DNA from: an uncultured Actinomycetota bacterium
GTDB lineage: Bacteria; Actinomycetota; UBA4738; HRBIN12
Assembly: GCA_963839395.1 (NCBI GenBank)
Contig: CAWIUW010000013.1
Location: 25,870-89,869, forward strand
Direction: 5' to 3'
Length of the DNA stretch: 64,000 nucleotides
How positions within the stretch are numbered: position 1 is the first letter of the stretch; every line of letters begins with the position of its first letter. A model generated the notes under the pieces. The model was not told the origin of the DNA and made no database searches. It saw nothing but the letters and a program-made list of their open reading frames with translations. Of the stretch, positions 47,339 through 54,752 are shown in pieces. A program made the translations under genes and the position numbers.

Positions 47339-47809
47339 TCAGCGAGCGCGATCGGGTGGATCGTCCAGCCCGTAGAGCCGGCGACCGGCAGCAGACATGC
47401 GGGCGGCCTCAGCGGGACTGATCAACCGCAACGGATCGTTCGACGCTTGCTTGCGTTTGCGGCGAAGAAGGCCGCGTCCCTTGGCTTCGGGCTCCGGTGC
47501 CGGAGGCCTCGGAACCGACGAGTGTCGCGCGTAGGCGGGCCTCACCATCAGCGCCTTGGTGCCATCTGCGCCGACCGCGTGCTCCTGTGCGCCAGATTCC
47601 ACGGGCCCCGACAGGCCGGTGTGGGATGGGAGTGTCTCATCGGCCGGTGGCGTGTACGGCGTGGTGCCAGTTCGAGCAGCCACGAGCCATCGTTCCTCGA
47701 GGTCCCGGCGATGGAACTCGGCCGCGAACCGATCCGCGCCCCACTTGATCGCCCGCTGCTGCGCGTATCGCAGCAGGGCAGTCTCGACGAGCTCCTCCTC
47801 GGTCTGCAC
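47339..47809 (-). CDS. Hypothetical protein (156 aa, GTG start)
   Basis: High GC3 in frame. MQTEEELVETALLRYAQQRAIKWGADRFAAEF.... No domain recognised. Confidence 0.35.
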   Translation of the reverse strand: MQTEEELVETALLRYAQQRAIKWGADRFAAEFHRRDLEERWLVAARTGTTPYTPPADETLPSHTGLSGPVESGAQEHAVGADGTKALMVRPAYARHSSVPRPPAPEPEAKGRGLLRRKRKQASNDPLRLISPAEAARMSAAGRRLYGLDDPPDRAR

Positions 47810-48588: not shown

Positions 48589-48864
48589 TCAGGATCCGCT
48601 CGGGTGGTGGATCGGCTCCTCGTGCTCGATCAACGCGCTGATCACAGAGCCCTCCTCCGCCAAGCCCGCATGTCCGGAGGTCTGGGCGATCACCGTGAGC
48701 AGGGCGCCGAGCGCCGCCTGGGCGTTGGGAGCGTCGATCCTGGCGATGAAGCGAGGATCCCCGCTCTCGGGATCGCGCGCCGCCTCCACCTCGTCGACGA
48801 TCGCGTAGGTGTTCGCGAGCACCGGGATCTCGTGCAGGGCTTCGTCATCGACATCCGCCCGCAT
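48589..48864 (-). CDS. Hypothetical small protein (about 91 aa)
   Basis: GC3 is 100% from about 48840 downward (ALHEIPVLANTYAIVDEVEAARDPESGDPRFIARIDAPNAQAALGALLTV...). No confident family. Confidence 0.4.
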   Translation of the reverse strand: MRADVDDEALHEIPVLANTYAIVDEVEAARDPESGDPRFIARIDAPNAQAALGALLTVIAQTSGHAGLAEEGSVISALIEHEEPIHHPSGS

Positions 48865-48937
48865 GCGAAGGTCAAGCCGATACCACATCGATCTGCGCAC
48901 CGTAGCGCGGCGCGGCGATCCCGTACAGCTGGACGGC

Positions 48938-49432
48938 TCATCCCTCCTCGAGCTCGTCGCGGAGCGCCGAGAGCCATTCGATCGCGATCCGGTCCTGCGG
49001 GCGGTCGGCGGCGCGCTTCATGCGGATCAGGTCGTCGAGAGAGGCCACTCGGACGACGAGCCCGTCGAGGTCCTCGTCGGTGGCCGACGCATCGAGGTCG
49101 GCGAACCCATCGGTCCCGGCCGGCGTGCCCAAGCAGTCCACCGGACCCGCATCGGTCATGAACGTGAAGTGATCACCCGCCTCGAGCGTTCGGCCGTCGA
49201 GGAGGAACGGAACGTCGAGGGAGACTCCACGGAGACGGGCATGGAGGCCCCGGAGAGCTGCGGCGAGACGCTCGAGGTTCCCGCGATCGCGGGCATGGCA
49301 GATGTCGACGTCGCCCGTCATCATCGGCGAGCCGCGGAGCGCCGCCGCGTAGCCGCCTATCAGCACGAACCGTACGCCGTGCTCGACGAGCGCCCGGAGC
49401 CCGGCGATGGGGTCGAAGGCAGGCTCGCTCAA
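48938..49432 (-). CDS. Minimal nucleotidyltransferase-fold protein (toxin-like, MenT/AbiEii-type NTase), about 165 aa
   Basis: NTase motif VLIGGYAAALRGSPMMTGDVDI (GG...G..T.D.D). C-terminal ...DDLIRMKRAADRPQDRIAIEWL. The TTG start at 49430-49432 overlaps the TGA of the upstream HTH gene (TTGA coupling). Confidence 0.6.
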   Translation of the reverse strand: MSEPAFDPIAGLRALVEHGVRFVLIGGYAAALRGSPMMTGDVDICHARDRGNLERLAAALRGLHARLRGVSLDVPFLLDGRTLEAGDHFTFMTDAGPVDCLGTPAGTDGFADLDASATDEDLDGLVVRVASLDDLIRMKRAADRPQDRIAIEWLSALRDELEEG

Positions 49433-49746
49433 GGGCGGACCTCGCGACGGCGGACGCTCCGGGTGCGGTTCCATTCTCTGGCGGTGAGCCGCCCGCGCTC
49501 GACCGGTGTGAGGCGCAGCCGCTCCCGGATCAGCGTCCGGTCCACGCCGTGGCCCGGTCGCTCCACCAGCGCGAGGGCCAGGCCACACGGCCGGAGCAAG
49601 ACGTCGAGCGTGTCGAGCCGTGGGGACACGTGATCGCGCTCGATCCGTGATACGGCCGGCTGGGGCACGCCCGCCGCGCGCGCGAGCTCGCGCTGCGTGA
49701 GCCCTGCCCTCCGCCGAGCCTCGCGCAAGACGGTCCCGGCTCTCAT
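49429..49746 (-). CDS. XRE-family helix-turn-helix transcriptional regulator (antitoxin-like)
   Basis: LREARRRAGLTQRELARAAGVPQPAVSRIERDHVSPRLDTLDVLL. Confidence 0.75.
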   Translation of the reverse strand: MRAGTVLREARRRAGLTQRELARAAGVPQPAVSRIERDHVSPRLDTLDVLLRPCGLALALVERPGHGVDRTLIRERLRLTPVERGRLTAREWNRTRSVRRREVRP

Positions 49747-49747
49747 G

Positions 49748-49779
49748 CTGCTATGATAACAGATTCGTTATCAGCAGAC
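49748..49779. promoter_or_regulatory. AT-rich palindromic operator TGATAAC-N6-GTTATCA (extended GCTGCTATGATAACAGATTCGTTATCAGCAGA), immediately 5' of the HTH gene start and inside the divergent promoter shared with the UvrD-like gene
   Basis: Perfect 7-bp arms at 49754-49760 and 49767-49773 in a background that is otherwise above 70% GC. It begins 8 nt upstream of the ATG at 49744-49746. Confidence 0.6.
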
Positions 49780-49820
49780 GCTCGCGCAGAAGCCCGGAGG
49801 CACGATGCTAGGGTCCGCTC

Positions 49821-51754
49821 GTGCGCGACCTGGACGGCATCCTCGCCGGGCTGAACGATCCCCAGCGCGAAGCCGCCCTCGCGCTTCGCGGCCCGGTCGC
49901 GATCCTGGCGGGTGCCGGCACCGGCAAGACCACCACGATCACGCATCGCATCGCCTGCCAGGTCCGGAGCGGCTCGTTCAAGACATCGCAGATCCTCGCG
50001 GTCACGTTCACGGAGAAGGCCGCCGGGGAGCTCAAGCGGCGGCTCGCGGCGCTCGGCGTCGACGGCGTCGAGGCGCGCACGTTCCACTCGGCCGCGCTCT
50101 CACAGCTGTCGCGGCTCTGGCAGACGCATACCGGCGAGCCCCTCCCCCAGGTGCTCGATCACAAGGCGCCGCTGATCGCCTCGCTCGCGAACGCGCTGCC
50201 CCCGCCCCACAAGTTCCTCCCCCGCCGCGAGCTCGCCGGCGAGATCGAGTGGGCGAAGAACCGGATGATCCCGCCGGACCGGTACCTCGCCGACCTCGAG
50301 CCCAACCATCACGAGCCGCCGATCCCACCGGAGCTGATGCTGCGGATCTACGAGGGGTACGAGCGGCGCAAGCGCACGATGGGGCGCCTCGACTTCGAAG
50401 ACATGCTGGGTCTCGCTCTGCGGCTCTTCGACGAGCACCCCGAGGCTGCGGAGATCGTCCGCGCTCGCTTCCACGCCTTCACCGTCGACGAGTACCAGGA
50501 CGTGAACCCGCTCCAGGCGGGGCTGCTCGACCGATGGCTCGGCCCGCGCGACGACCTCTGCGTCGTGGGCGACGACTACCAGACGATCTACGCGTTCACC
50601 GGCGCGTCGCCCGAGCACCTGCTCGGCTTCACGCGGCGGTTCCCGAACGCGACGGTCGTGCGCCTCGAGGAGAACTACCGCTCCACGCCGGAGATCCTCG
50701 ACTTCGCGAACCGCTTGGCTCCACATCTCGGTGGGTTCCGGAAGACGCTCCGGGCGACCACGGCCTCGGGAGCGCCGCCGGTCGCGCGCGCCGCACGCGA
50801 CGAGGGCGGCGAAGTCGCGTCCGTCGTCGGGGCCGTCCGGGGACTCCACGACGAGGAGGCCGTGCCGTTCGAGGAGATCGCCGTGCTCTACCGGATCAAC
50901 GCTCGATCGGAGCCCTTCGAGGAGGCGTTCGCTTCCGCCGGCATCCCGTACCAGGTGCGCGATGGGGCGTTCCTGCGACGGCCCGGGCCACGCTCGGTCC
51001 TGCAGCGGCTGAAGCGGTTGGGCCACGACGACTCGCTCGTGCACGCGGTCACGGCGATCACCGCGGAGTTCGGGTACGACCCTGGATCGTCCCCGGACTC
51101 GGACGAAGAGGTGACGCGCCAGTCCGACCTCGCGCGGATGCGCTCGCTCGCGGCGGAGTTCGAGCGGGCGCATCCGGACGGCGACGCCGCGGCGTTCCTC
51201 GCGGAGTTGACGAACCGGTTCTCGACGGAGCACAGCGGCCGCGGCGTGAACCTGCTCACGTACCACCGCGCGAAGGGTCTCGAGTTCGACGCCGTGTTCC
51301 TCCCACGGCTGATCGACGGTGAGCTCCCGTTCCGGTCGGGCCGCGCGAAGGCCGACCCGCAGGAGGAACGCCGGCTGCTCTACGTCGGGATCACCCGCGC
51401 CCGCCGCTTCCTCTTCCTGACGTGGGCGGTCGAAGGGCGGTCGCGGCCGAGCCCGTTCCTCGAAGAGATGGGGGTCTCAGCCTCGCGGCCGTCGGGACGA
51501 GGGTCGCCCCGACCGGTGTCCGTCTCATCGGCAGGTGGCGGCGCGCTGTTCGACCGGCTGAAGGAGTGGCGACGGAAGCGAGCACAGACGGATGACGTGC
51601 CCGCCTACGTCGTGTTCCACGACCGGACGCTCGCCGAGATCGCCGACCGGAAGCCGGGAGACCGGGCAGACCTGGCCGTCGATCTCCGGCGTCGGACCGG
51701 CCAAGCTCGAGCGGTACGCCGACGAGATCCTGGAGATCGTCGGCCGGACGTGAC
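49821..51754 (+). CDS. UvrD/Rep-family DNA helicase with C-terminal HRDC domain (UvrD2-like). The HRDC is interrupted by an apparent frameshift near 51660.
   Basis: GPVAILAGAGTGKTTTITHRIA (Walker A), VDEYQDVN, YRST motifs. After ...VPAYVVFHDRTLAEIADRKP the HRDC continues in the +2 frame as ...ISGVGPAKLERYADEILEIVGRT* and ends at 51752-51754. Confidence 0.75.
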
Positions 51755-51777
51755 CGGGACGTGGAAGCGTCCTTGCC

Positions 51778-54752
51778 TCATCGCGACTCGCCGAGCCCAG
51801 CGAGCCGATCACGCACCCGCTGAGCCAGAACGAGGTGCCCCTTCCGTTCGTATCGATCGAGTGCCTGCCGGAGTGCCGCGGCTGCCTCGTCGGGCTTCCC
51901 TGCGAGGAGGAGCACCTCGGCGAGGTCGGCGTTCGCATCGCCTTGCCCGATGAGCGAGTCCGTTCCTTCGCCGATCGCGACCGCCTCACGGGCGAGCCGC
52001 TCCGCCTCGGCATGCTCGCCTCGGCGAGCAAGAACCCTGGCCCTGACCTGCCGCCACACCATCTCCTTCAGAACGTCGTCCCTCGAGCCGAGCTCCGCCG
52101 AGCGGCCGGCCCAGTGGTCGGCCTCGTCCAGCCGGTCGAGGGCGTAGTACGCCCGCGCGAGGTTCCCGGCCGCGGGCGCCAGGAAGTCTCGGTTCGCCCA
52201 TCTCCTCGTGCAGCCGGAACCCCTCTGCTCCCTGCTCGGCTGCCGCGGTGGGATCACCGGCCCAGAGCTCGAGGTCGACGGACTCGAAGGCGAGGAGGTT
52301 CGCGAGCAGGGTTCCCCCGCCCCGCTCGGACTGGTCCGCACGCGCCTCGGCGAGGATCGGCGCGGGCCTCGTCGAGACGACCGAGCATCGCCACCGTCAT
52401 GGCGCGGTAGGCACGGAGGAACTGGTCCCGCGCCGCACGCGGTTCGTTCTCGTCGAGCCACTCGAGAAGATCCGGACGCGGGGGTCGACCCGAAGTAGCG
52501 ATACGCGGCGAGGGACCCGATGCCCCCGGCCGGCAGGCCGGCCTGCCGAGCGTGCGCGAAGGCCCGTTCGGTGGCTTCCAGCGCCGCGTCCATCTGTGCG
52601 CGTACCCCCGCCACCTCGGCGAGCCCCGAGTAGGCGATGTAGAGGGCCAGATGGTCGCCGGCGGCCTCGAGCTCGGGTAAGGCCCCCTGGATGGATGCGG
52701 CAAGCTCCTCCGTCGCTCCCTCTGGCTGGAGGTTGAGACGGGACACACCCGCCATGATCCTCCCGGAGATCTCGACGACACGATCGCCCGTCGCAGCAGC
52801 CCGCTCGGCGAGAAGATCCGCTCGCCGGAGCGCTTCGTCGGTCCTGCCTGTCCAGAACAGGACCTCCCCGAGCTCCGTCTCGAGGGCGAGGTCGATCTCG
52901 TCCGGAGGCACGAGTGTCGCTGCGCGCTCGAGCAGGCTCACGGCGGCGCCGTAGTCCTGCCGGCGGGCCGCACGCTGCCCGCCTGCAACCAGGCGCCGCC
53001 GCGCCGCGGCGGCGAGGGTGCCGTCGTCGGCTGTCCCGAGCTCGGAGCGGTAGCGGCAGGCCTGTTCGAGGTGGTAGCCGAGGAGCTCGTCCAGTTCCAC
53101 GAGCTCGGTCCCGTGCTCCTCCAGCCAGGATGCGAAGCGCTCGTGGAGGTCCGCCCTGGTCGCTTTCGGGAGCGCGTCGTGGGCGGCGTCGCGGATGAGG
53201 ATGTGGCGGAAGCGGAAGCCGTCCTCGCCCGGGAACAGCGGCTTCTCCGGCCTGATCAGCTCCTTACGAACGAGCGCGGTCAGGCGCGACGTCACCTGAG
53301 TCTCCTCGGGTGAGAGCGCCTGGACGGCACCTCGGTGGAAGATCTCACCCTCGATCGCGCCCCGCTCGAGCACGCTCCGCTCGGCCGTCGGGAGCTGGTC
53401 GATACGCGCCGCGAGCAGCGCCTGCAGCGTGGGCGGCACGACCACCTGGCCGTCCGTTTCGCGGGCCACGGCGAGCATCTCCTCGATGAAGAGGGGGTTG
53501 CCGCCCGAGGCGCGAGCGATCGTGTCGCGCAGCTCGCCGGTCGATCCGCTCCGGGATGAGCTCGTCGACGTCTCCGTCGCCCAGGGGTTCGAGCCGAAGC
53601 GCCACCGGCCAGGCAGGGCGGCGCTCCGTGAGCTCCGGCCGCGCGATGCAGAAGAGCAGGATCGCTGCCCCCGAGGACAGGAGCTCGACGTGCTCGATCA
53701 GGTCGAGGAACACCTCCTCGCCCCACTGGATGTCGTCGAAGACGACCACGAGCGGCCGTTCCGCAGCGGCGTGCTCCAGCGTCTTGCGGAACGCCCACGC
53801 GATCTCTTCGGCGGATGTCGCCGCCTCCCTCTCGCCGAGCAGCGAGCCGACCGCCTCAGCGGCGGCACCTTCCGGAGGCTGCACGTGGAGCTTCTTCAGC
53901 ACCTCGACGACCGGCCAATAGGTGATCCCCTCGCCGTATGGGGGGCAGCGGCCGCGCAGGACCGTCGCCTCGATCGACGCAAGCAGCTCCGCGGCGAGCC
54001 GAGACTTGCCGACGCCTGCATCCCCCGCGACCGTGATCAGCTCGCAGCGTTCCTCGGCCCGCACGCGCTCCCATGCCTGCTGAAGCGATCGTGAGCTCGC
54101 GCTCGCGGCCTACGAAACGTTCCCCTCGCGGGCGCTCCGGCACGTCGTGCACGCGCAGCAGCCGGTAGGCGAGAACCGGCTCCGACTTGCCCTTCAGCTC
54201 GAGAGGCTCGAGCGGCTCGACGTCGGCTGCGTTGCGAACGAGCGCGAGCGTCGGTTGGCCGATCAGCACGTCTCCGGGTGGGGCCGCCTGCTCCAGCCGA
54301 GCGGCGACGTTGACGGCATCCCCGGTCGCGAGCCGCTCCTCCGTCCCCGTCACCACCTCCCCGGTCATGACGCCGATCCGTCCCTCGAGCCCGAGCTCGG
54401 GAAGCGCGTCCCGCATCTCCGCCGCCGCCCGTACCGCCCGCAGCGCGTCGTCCTCGTGCAACGCGGGCACGCCGAACACGGCCATCACCGCATCACCGAT
54501 GAACTTCTCGACGCTGCCGCCATGCCTCTCGACGATCGCCTTCATCCGGTCGAAGTAGCGCGCGAGCACCGCACGGAGGCGCTCCGGGTCGAGCGCCTCT
54601 CCTAGCGCGGTCGAACCGGTCAGGTCGCAGAAGAGGACGGTGACCGTCTTCCGCTGTTCGCGAGGGAGCGCCGCGCCGGAGGCCGCGCCGCATCGGGGGC
54701 AGAACGTGAACGCAGACTTCGACTCGTAGCCGCAGTTCACGCATGCCGGCAC
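51778..54752 (-). pseudogene. Zinc-ribbon/class III cyclase/AAA-STAND/TPR protein, paralog 2, fragmented into three frames
   Basis: 53856..54752 (MPACVNCGYESKSAFTFCPRC + cyclase VTVLFCDLTGSTALGE...). 53345..54064 (AAA: ITVAGDAGVGKSRL...VVFDDIQWGEE). 51778..53478 (TPR region). Confidence 0.75.

Follow-up and report, generated by a model that had tools for sequence, protein, structure and literature searches.

A candidate MenT-like nucleotidyltransferase module with a helix-turn-helix partner and a predicted operator in an uncultured Actinomycetota genome

A two-gene module encoding an XRE-family protein and a minimal nucleotidyltransferase

We analysed a stretch of 64,000 nucleotides (nt) from an uncultured member of the Actinomycetota (assembly GCA_963839395.1, contig CAWIUW010000013.1, positions 25,870-89,869), which is referred to below as the window. 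The subject of this study is a pair of small genes in this stretch that encode a helix-turn-helix (HTH) protein of the XRE family and a minimal nucleotidyltransferase (NTase), together with the palindrome that lies upstream of them (Table 1). A first-pass annotation, made from the sequence alone, had described the pair as a toxin-antitoxin (TA)-like module, composed of a 105-residue XRE HTH protein and an NTase-fold protein of about 165 residues with a GG...G..TxDxD motif, in which the TTG start codon of the second gene overlaps the TGA stop codon of the first. Both genes were found as described, on the minus strand of the window. The HTH protein has the length given and matched the Pfam families HTH_3 (E=7e-14) and HTH_31 (E=5e-12). 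The NTase has 164 residues, carries the motif as LIGG (glycines 26-27), G34 and T39-G-D41-V-D43, and is the same protein as P0001 in a public protein collection (100% identity and coverage). The overlap of the two genes was confirmed at 49432-49429.

Table 1. Features of the HTH-NTase module, with positions in the window.
Feature	Position	Strand	Details
HTH gene	ATG 49746 to TGA 49431-49429	minus	105 aa, XRE family, putative antitoxin and autorepressor
NTase gene	TTG 49432-49430 to stop 48940-48938	minus	164 aa, minimal nucleotidyltransferase, putative MenT1-like toxin
Operator TGATAAC-N6-GTTATCA	49754-49773	no strand	arms TGATAAC 49754-49760 and GTTATCA 49767-49773; core GATAAC-N6-GTTATC
Putative extended -10 element TGTTATCAT (TGn + TATCAT)	49753-49761	minus	inside the gene-proximal operator half-site
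HTH DNA-binding domain	49573-49737	minus	aa 4-58, range from Pfam alignment; recognition helix with Q29-P30-A31
Tail motif RPGHGVDRTLIRERLRLTPVERGR	49492-49563	minus	aa 62-85 of the HTH protein, proposed to bind and neutralise the NTase
GAGG Shine-Dalgarno-like motif for the NTase gene	49440-49443	minus	7 nt 5' of the TTG, within the 3' end of the HTH gene
TTGA overlap of NTase TTG start and HTH TGA stop	49429-49432	minus	read from the sequence
NTase motifs I/II, G26-G27...G34-S35...T39-x-D41-x-D43	49304-49357	minus	putative metal and nucleotide binding; Thr at the position of the phospho-acceptor of MenT1
C-terminal catalytic helix motif K139-R-A-A-D-R144-P-Q-D147	48992-49018	minus	equivalent to MenT1 K137...R146-P-Q-D149

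The gene pair is conserved in variable genomic contexts

Homologous loci were collected from genomes of uncultured Actinomycetota (17 loci, with an NTase identity of 62-91% to the window protein) and from metagenomes (80 loci, 43-89% identity). The metagenomic search was performed with a six-sequence subset of the family, since the full diverse alignment was too variable. Sufficient upstream sequence was available for 85 loci, and in 81 of these an HTH homologue was encoded immediately 5' of the NTase gene on the same strand, down to an NTase identity of 43%. The four remaining loci had an HTH-less partner gene upstream, in which the C-terminal motif of the HTH proteins (referred to below as the tail) was clear in three cases (L088, L091 and L095) and loose in one (L096). 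Start and stop codons overlapped as NTGA in 49 loci, about 17 more loci showed an out-of-frame overlap, and most of the others had gaps of 0-16 nt. Shine-Dalgarno (SD)-like motifs preceded the NTase start in 19 of the 61 loci surveyed, as compared to 4 of 61 for the HTH start.

The genes that flank the module varied among the loci with 62-91% NTase identity. In the window the module lies between a UvrD-like helicase gene and an open reading frame (ORF) of 103 codons, at locus L005 it lies between a BON-domain gene and a histidine-kinase gene, which is another position within the same neighbourhood, and the helicase neighbour recurred only at locus L008. Two further copies are carried on plasmids. 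One is found on a mobilizable 264-kb plasmid of Mycolicibacterium rufum (L106; NZ_CP092428.2, 129550-130355), with an IS110 transposase nearby, and the other on a megaplasmid of Miltoncostaea oceani (L107; NZ_CP064357.1, 537131-538003), with a gene for an RHS-repeat protein nearby. Both plasmid-borne pairs are annotated only as 'helix-turn-helix transcriptional regulator' and 'hypothetical protein'. Since M. rufum is a cultured species, its plasmid copy, with the protein accessions WP_043416234.1 and WP_052429202.1, opens the system to experiments in a mycobacterial background.

This comparison supports the view that the HTH and NTase genes form a conserved, translationally coupled and self-contained module that is movable and occurs in variable contexts. 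Judged by sequence, the pair also displays the generic features of a type II-style TA system, namely a short overlap between two small genes of the same orientation, an antitoxin-like gene in the first position, and a patchy, movable distribution. The HTH-NTase cassette is common in soil bacteria.

Some irregularities were seen at individual loci. The junction at L002, L003, L018 and L019 reads CTGA at the position of the NTase start, and not NTGA with a canonical start codon, which suggests either the use of CTG as a start codon or termination-reinitiation that does not need a standard one. The HTH gene at L003 also contains a frameshift, possibly an error of long-read assembly. The annotated NTase start in M. 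oceani seems to lie too far downstream, and an in-frame ATG just after the HTH stop codon gives a full-length protein. At L001, a 23-aa fragment (L001:5839-5907) that is 96% identical to the C-terminus of the NTase lies ~1.3 kb downstream of the intact module, and is apparently the remnant of a second copy.

A predicted operator overlaps the probable promoter of the module

The first-pass annotation had placed a perfect palindrome 8 nt upstream of the HTH gene. The dyad is perfect, with 7-nt arms and a 6-nt spacer, and the distance to the HTH ATG is 7 nt. With one mismatch allowed, the pattern GATARC-N6-GYTATC occurred once in 64 kb against 0.07 expected occurrences, and since the window holds no other copy of the operator, the only evident target of the HTH protein is the module itself. 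We surveyed 76 unique promoters of homologous modules, and a site of the type GATANN-N6-NNTATC was present just 5' of the HTH start in 58 of them. The site was symmetric at its variable positions in 43 of these 58 promoters, and six dyad types were represented (AC, GC, TG, TC, GT and CC). Perfect 6-N6-6 dyads were seen in 35 of 75 promoters, whereas 0.055 were expected per 85-nt interval elsewhere in the same loci.

The gene-proximal half-site, along with the next two bases, formed a TANNNT -10 hexamer in 47 of the 58 site-bearing promoters, and 36 of the 58 had TG at -15/-14, the hallmark of an extended -10 element. The hexamer ended 6-7 nt before the start codon in 36 of 50 promoters; in the window, six nt (AGCAGC) separate the extended -10 element from the HTH ATG. 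Given this spacing and the scarcity of SD-like motifs before the HTH start, the HTH-NTase mRNA is probably leaderless. A strict scan for sigma-70 promoters and terminators between 48400 and 50000 returned nothing, as there was no match to a -35 element, and the promoter is proposed instead from the conserved extended -10 element. We also considered a role for the palindrome as an RNA hairpin. This was rejected, since transcription probably starts downstream of the palindrome, the symmetry of the arms changes in step with a residue of the protein (see below), and a 7-bp AT-rich stem would be weak.

The identity of residue 31 of the HTH protein, in the recognition helix, was then compared with base 5 of the operator half-site in 56 HTH-promoter pairs. 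Alanine was found with GATAAC, threonine with GATAGC, methionine with GATATG, and mostly valine with GATATC. The mutual information between residue 31 and the half-site was 1.24 bits, with an entropy of 1.95 bits. This was the highest value among the 19 HTH positions tested, and 0 of 10,000 shuffles reached it, whether all 56 pairs were used or the 33 representatives below 70% identity. Statistics of this kind are inflated by common descent, and the same pairs nonetheless recur across lineages with only 45-60% HTH identity. The copy on the M. rufum plasmid obeys the same rule, with QPAIAR in the protein and ATAAC-N6-GTTAT in the promoter.

Family-wide dyads and their co-variation with residue 31 thus make a strong case for the palindrome as the predicted operator of the HTH protein, situated over the -10 element of its own promoter. 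The module is almost certainly autoregulated at the level of transcription, and the autoregulation through the palindrome that had been suggested for the pair agrees with these patterns. In dozens of lineages, a single residue of the XRE recognition helix goes with a single operator base, which amounts to a natural recognition code of unusual clarity and should make specificity-swap experiments straightforward.

These data also bear on a trivial explanation, that an ordinary XRE regulator and an unrelated NTase are adjacent by chance, and that the palindrome is fortuitous or a mere promoter element. XRE regulators and short palindromes are indeed very common, and the strict promoter scan gave no sigma-70 consensus. 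However, the two genes are paired at 81 of 85 loci down to 43% NTase identity and also exist as gene fusions (see below), the dyad remains symmetric in each of six half-site variants and varies together with the recognition helix, and a -10 element alone needs no symmetric upstream half-site. Chance adjacency is therefore effectively refuted.

In the window, operator and promoter lie in a divergent intergenic region of 74 bp (49747-49820) that is shared with the UvrD/HRDC helicase gene (49821-51953, plus strand). Binding of the HTH repressor could incidentally influence the helicase promoter in this genome. Any such effect would be lineage-specific, since the neighbouring gene varies among the other loci.

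The nucleotidyltransferase is related to the toxin MenT1

MenT toxins extend the 3' ends of tRNA, which blocks translation, and have been studied as growth regulators of Mycobacterium tuberculosis. The known MenT toxins differ from one another in the kind of antitoxin that accompanies them, and the phospho-acceptor residue lies two residues before the first aspartate (T39 in MenT1 and S78 in MenT3). The active-site residues of MenT1 are T39, D41, D43 and K137, and the enzyme adds cytidine to tRNA (PMC10435456). All four align with identical residues of the window NTase, namely T39, D41, D43 and K139. Conservation was assessed over 65 diverse members of the NTase family, which also form the basis of the family counts given below. 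The residues of motifs I and II were kept in most members (G26 in 65/65, G34 in 64/65, T39 in 58/65 with serine in two more, D41 in 59/65 and D43 in 61/65), as were those of the C-terminal helix (K139 in 59/65, R144 in 59/65 and D147 in 63/65). D99 was near-invariant too. The family is large, with 5,764 clusters at 50% identity at E<=1e-3, and 1,711 at E<=1e-10.

Among proteins of solved structure, only MenT1 was related in sequence over the full length. It was matched over its full length by phmmer (E=0.008), at positions 11-155 by a search of the PDB with the NTase family profile (E=2.2e-5), and over 134 columns by hhalign (probability 95.4%, E=1.9e-8). An AlphaFold2 (AF2) model of the NTase was of high confidence, with a predicted local distance difference test score (pLDDT) of 95.7 and a predicted template modelling score (pTM) of 0.90. 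The top Foldseek match of this model was again MenT1 (8an5_B; E=1e-6, template modelling (TM) score 0.67, 155 columns, 27% identity), followed by TM1012, ANT(2'')-Ia and LnuA (E=1e-5 to 3e-4, TM scores of 0.5-0.6, 13-20% identity). The sequence alignment with TM1012 was limited to the N-terminal 40 residues, and the K...RPxD helix motif is, at the level of sequence, common to the window protein and MenT1 only. Both enzymes are acidic (pI 4.6 for the NTase and 4.8 for MenT1), and the HTH partner is very basic.

With respect to Pfam, the nearest models were two families of uncharacterised NTases. The match to DUF2204 (PF09970) fell just short of the threshold on the N-terminal motif (19.8 bits against 20.3), and DUF6036 (PF19502) scored 17.9 bits where 23.6 are required, in a match confined to the N-terminal 30 residues. 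Among the 65 members, 44 matched DUF6036, 38 matched DUF2204 and 8 matched AbiEii at E<0.01. The best relative matched DUF6036 with E=1.5e-10, so that the family straddles the boundary of this model, and precomputed annotations on relatives of the NTase list PF19502 or PF09970. NTP_transf_2/KNTase-type Pfam families were not matched by the window NTase, nor were they among the top families of the 65 relatives. A match to a housekeeping NTase family had been named at the outset as an outcome that would contradict the TA interpretation. Scans of the NTase against NCBIfam and PADLOC gave no match, and we therefore count it neither among the named housekeeping NTases nor among the catalogued defence proteins.

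The resemblance to TM1012, ANT(2'')-Ia and LnuA, which are of similar size, raises the question of whether the protein modifies a small molecule, such as an antibiotic or a metabolite, under the control of an adjacent XRE repressor. The Aminoglyc_resit family (PF10706) was matched weakly by 11 of the 65 members (best E=2e-6), and an XRE-MNT pair of Streptococcus suis has been linked to streptomycin resistance (PMC8406773). Against this stand the lack of any Aminoglyc_resit match on the window NTase, and the confinement of the TM1012 similarity to the N-terminal 40 residues, whereas that to MenT1 runs over the full length and includes the K...RPxD helix. A threonine of the phospho-acceptor type before the DxD, reported as characteristic of the DUF1814 superfamily (PMC11375011), is moreover kept in 58 of 65 members. 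Resistance enzymes are also not normally coupled to or fused with a regulator, nor provided by it with a conserved peptide that does not bind DNA. We consider a small-molecule NTase of this kind very unlikely.

The tail of the HTH protein is the constant partner of the NTase

The closest solved relatives of the HTH domain were the antitoxins HigA (6af3, E=2e-7), HipB and HicB, and the domain also matched a Y4mF/HipB-like model of NCBIfam. It is of the XRE/Cro-C1 type, and no AbiEi-type domain was found on the protein with either Pfam or NCBIfam. Past residue 60, the HTH proteins share the tail motif RPGxGVDRTLIRxxLRLTPxxR, which was kept across partners of 40-90% identity; the end of the protein after the motif is basic and variable. 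The HTH-less partners at L088, L091 and L095 carry it as ...FGIDLTLTLxNLRLTPEER..., and an acidobacterial locus (L102:3349-3501, Ga0209468_1000014) encodes a 50-aa partner, MEQKTAAKPGTGIDRTQIQQLLQVSPAERVRMLVVESRNVAALLSRIRRR, that consists of the tail motif only. The stop codon of this short gene overlaps the ATG of the NTase gene as TGATG, and one of two gene callers missed it. To judge from these alignments, the constant companion of the NTase is the C-terminal tail motif, and not the HTH. A search with a profile of the tail returned nothing meaningful from the PDB or Pfam, with antibody light chains as the best matches, and MenA1, the partner of MenT1 in 8AN5, was not matched.

HTH, tail and NTase were also found as a single chain. 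Such fusions made up ~20 of the 150 best family representatives, a dedicated search yielded ~25 proteins, and one fusion was seen in three independent assemblies. The AF2 model of a fusion was confident throughout (pLDDT 94.2, pTM 0.88), and the tail formed two helices, residues 71-77 and 82-99, with no floppy linker. In an intact fusion the putative toxin would remain attached to its antidote at all times.

One locus carries a fusion in addition to the pair. There, a 236-aa paralogous fusion (L105:4792-5502; ena ERZ25039492 contig_14995) lies ~800 bp downstream of an active HTH and NTase pair, with VEV in place of the DxD and threonine in place of the lysine. It may be a domesticated, purely regulatory derivative.

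A model for the module, and the evidence for and against it

We propose that the pair is an autoregulated MenT-like TA module with a new antitoxin that consists of an XRE HTH and a tail. The toxicity, the substrate and the contact through the tail are predictions, and we assign this interpretation as a whole a probability of about 0.6. Most likely, the module is a new branch of a known TA family.

According to this model, a dimer of the XRE HTH protein would bind to GATAAC-N6-GTTATC, occlude the extended -10 element, and thereby repress the leaderless operon. The TTGA overlap would couple synthesis of the NTase to that of the antitoxin. The tail (GxGVDRTLIR..LRLTP..R, two helices) would bind and neutralise the NTase, for example by sequestration. 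Once freed by loss or titration of the partner, the catalytically competent NTase would add nucleotides to the 3' ends of tRNA or other RNA and block translation, by analogy with MenT1. As a second and purely conjectural layer, the tail might induce auto-phosphorylation of T39, as MenA1 does on MenT1. This appears plausible because T39 is conserved and a single helix of MenA1 is reported to be able to induce auto-phosphorylation (PMC11375011).

A number of observations weigh against this interpretation. With regard to the enzyme, the Foldseek search with the NTase domain of a fusion homologue gave TM1012 and MenT1 about the same score, with ANT(2'')-Ia and LnuA not far below. Since these proteins score near MenT1, the NTase fold alone does not indicate a toxin, and a homologue of the MenT toxins, MenT2, was found to be without toxicity (PMC10435456). 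A search of the NTase with hidden Markov models of the DUF1814/NTP_transf families had been proposed at the outset. Pfam AbiEii (PF08843) was not matched by the window NTase at E<=1, whereas a MenT1 fragment scored 35.7 bits against a cut-off of 22.5. The essential D152 of MenT1 aligned with a variable column (position 150; A19, E10, D9) and D147 of the NTase with MenT1 D149, a ribose contact in published simulations, in an alignment that is sequence-based and whose register a structural superposition could move by one helical turn. In view of the failed AbiEii threshold and the variable D152 column, we treat the NTase family as a sister family of MenT1, and not as a member of DUF1814. RefSeq labels the NTase 'hypothetical protein', and the literature searched held nothing on DUF6036 and only one, unrelated, mention of DUF2204. 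A PADLOC scan, a viral-contig scan and a tblastn search of phages also gave no association with defence islands, phages or viral contigs, and thus nothing that points to the abortive infection considered in the first-pass annotation.

The partner and the fusions provide further points of this kind. The full catalytic set was kept in 24 of 25 single-chain fusions, catalytically dead fusions persist (P0128 and the L105 paralogue), and the proposed contact between tail and NTase is inferred from the confident placement of the tail in the AF2 model. At L008 (CAVYBY010000009.1, 3300-4520), an orthologous locus beside the same UvrD-like helicase with an extra 185-aa ORF between helicase and module, the N-terminal ~25 codons of the HTH gene are missing, as are its tail and the operator half-site on the gene-proximal (right) side. 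What is left of the HTH gene continues in frame into an NTase ORF that is intact and has all catalytic residues. Loss of the promoter may silence this NTase.

The same observations lend themselves to a non-toxic explanation, in which the NTase is a co-regulator, a sensor or an effector-modifying partner of the XRE repressor, and the pair constitutes an autoregulated switch. The NTase could, for instance, transfer a nucleotide to the tail of the repressor or to a ligand, or respond to nucleotide pools, and so modulate DNA binding. A purely regulatory role of the NTase fold would fit the persistence of dead fusions, and intact single-chain fusions are common and carry no annotation beyond that of a transcriptional regulator. 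In the model of a fusion, HTH, tail and NTase are packed together as one confident unit, and L008 tolerates an intact NTase with no functional HTH. Several findings are at odds with this role. The operator has no second copy in the 64-kb window, the genomic context is variable and in places plasmid-borne and IS-adjacent, and the only significant full-length sequence relative of the NTase is a proven toxin. The 50-aa tail-only partner moreover has no DNA-binding function to regulate, and a tight overlap behind an antitoxin-like HTH gene is the architecture of type II TA systems. We regard a regulator-enzyme pair as unlikely, though by no means negligible.

A bolder version of the TA interpretation is that the tail is a portable and hitherto unrecognised inhibitor peptide, free, attached to an XRE domain or fused in cis, for a very large clade of MenT-like NTases, and that the fusions are triggered sensors of the CapRel kind. 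We think this decidedly improbable. If true, the tail would keep a fused toxin inactive until a trigger, such as proteolysis, a phage protein or release from DNA, sets it free. Should the tail force auto-phosphorylation of T39, the mechanism of MenA1 would be extended to thousands of uncharacterised proteins outside DUF1814.

Comparison with known systems

The pair had been likened to modules of the MenA/MenT or the AbiEi/AbiEii kind. The first likeness holds for the enzyme, whose closest characterised relative is MenT1; a partner that is AbiEi-like or detectably MenA1-like was not found. The MenA1/MenT1 pair (Rv0078B/Rv0078A; 8AN4, 8AN5 and 8RR5) shares with the window module a minimal single-domain NTase (196 aa in the 8AN4 chain and 164 aa here), a partner gene located upstream, an acidic enzyme, and the residues T39, D41, D43, Lys and R-P-Q-D. 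MenA1 is an antitoxin of ~68 aa that has no DNA-binding domain (PMC10435456, PMC11375011), and the tail-only partners of the present family (50-100 aa, also lacking such a domain) resemble it in size and layout. The Ser/Thr phospho-acceptor is reported to be strictly conserved in the DUF1814 superfamily, and even a single helix of MenA1 to be capable of inducing auto-phosphorylation (PMC11375011). Unlike the window protein, MenT1 passes the Pfam AbiEii threshold; the two enzymes are only ~27% identical, and MenT1 has a four-residue insertion between the lysine and the RPQD. The partners differ as well, since the window encodes a 105-aa XRE HTH protein with a tail that has no detectable similarity to MenA1. 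Finally, the predicted operator described here overlaps the putative -10 element, whereas MenAT1 was reported not to be transcriptionally autoregulated (PMC11375011).

AbiEi/AbiEii of Streptococcus agalactiae and the MenAT2 and MenAT4 systems, which are type IV/VII systems of the COG5340-DUF1814 kind, resemble the module in having an autoregulated operon with a DNA-binding antitoxin encoded upstream of a Pol-beta-fold NTase. AbiEi is also bipartite, with an N-terminal DNA-binding part and a C-terminal neutralising part (putative in our case), and the NTases share motifs I/II and a lysine-containing C-terminal motif. However, AbiEii and MenT3/4 are larger, bi-lobed proteins that match PF08843, which the window NTase does not. 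AbiEi is a COG5340 winged-HTH protein with a large C-terminal domain, and not a 105-aa XRE protein with a 45-aa tail.

The Xress-MNTss pair of S. suis, which represents the Xre-MNT category of TAfinder, likewise has an XRE gene upstream of an NTase-fold 'toxin' and palindromes in its promoter, which is repressed by Xre or by the complex, as seen in electrophoretic mobility shift and reporter assays (PMC8406773). In contrast to the window NTase, MNTss belongs to a kanamycin nucleotidyltransferase-like family, and the evidence for its toxicity is weak, since it was toxic only if exported to the periplasm of Escherichia coli (PMC8406773). No tail motif or MenT-like C-terminal helix was reported for that system.

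Among type II systems, HigA, HipB and HicB have the HTH domains closest to that of the window protein, and here too a dimeric XRE protein on a palindrome that overlaps its own promoter is predicted. Their cognate toxins are RNases or kinases, whereas the module described here has an NTase and a new C-terminal motif. ANT(2'')-Ia, LnuA and TM1012 are similar to the NTase in size, fold and the N-terminal GG...DxD motif, but have no conserved partner protein, overlap or fusion.

The architecture of the module therefore follows the generic logic of type II systems and the theme of MenAT and AbiE, and is not surprising in kind. Neither the NTase family nor the tail motif of its partners was described in the literature searched. 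The module would thus add a large family of MenT-like NTases, lying just outside the DUF1814 model and with no experimental study in that literature, and a fifth, modular kind of partner for such enzymes, a short tail that is optionally attached to an XRE domain or fused to the enzyme.

Genomic setting of the module

The genome had been estimated to exceed 70% GC; the value for the window is 69.4%. No compositional anomaly that would signal horizontal transfer was seen at the module, and its surroundings in the window are those of an ordinary chromosome, with genes for a PAS histidine kinase, a BON-domain protein, a UvrD/HRDC helicase and a TPR protein. The 64-kb window contained no tRNA genes, no Rfam families at the gathering threshold, and no paralogues of the HTH or NTase gene.

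Two ORFs on the minus strand between the module and the histidine-kinase gene, at 48589-48900 (103 aa) and 47339-47809 (156 aa), had no match in Pfam. The first of these (48900 to 48589) was considered as a third component of the module and rejected, as it is adjacent to the pair only in L003 and L004, lies elsewhere in L001, is absent from the rest, and has no Pfam match. Its homologues at L001, L003 and L004 are 67-75% identical and not consistently linked to the module, and the 103-aa ORF is probably a real gene.

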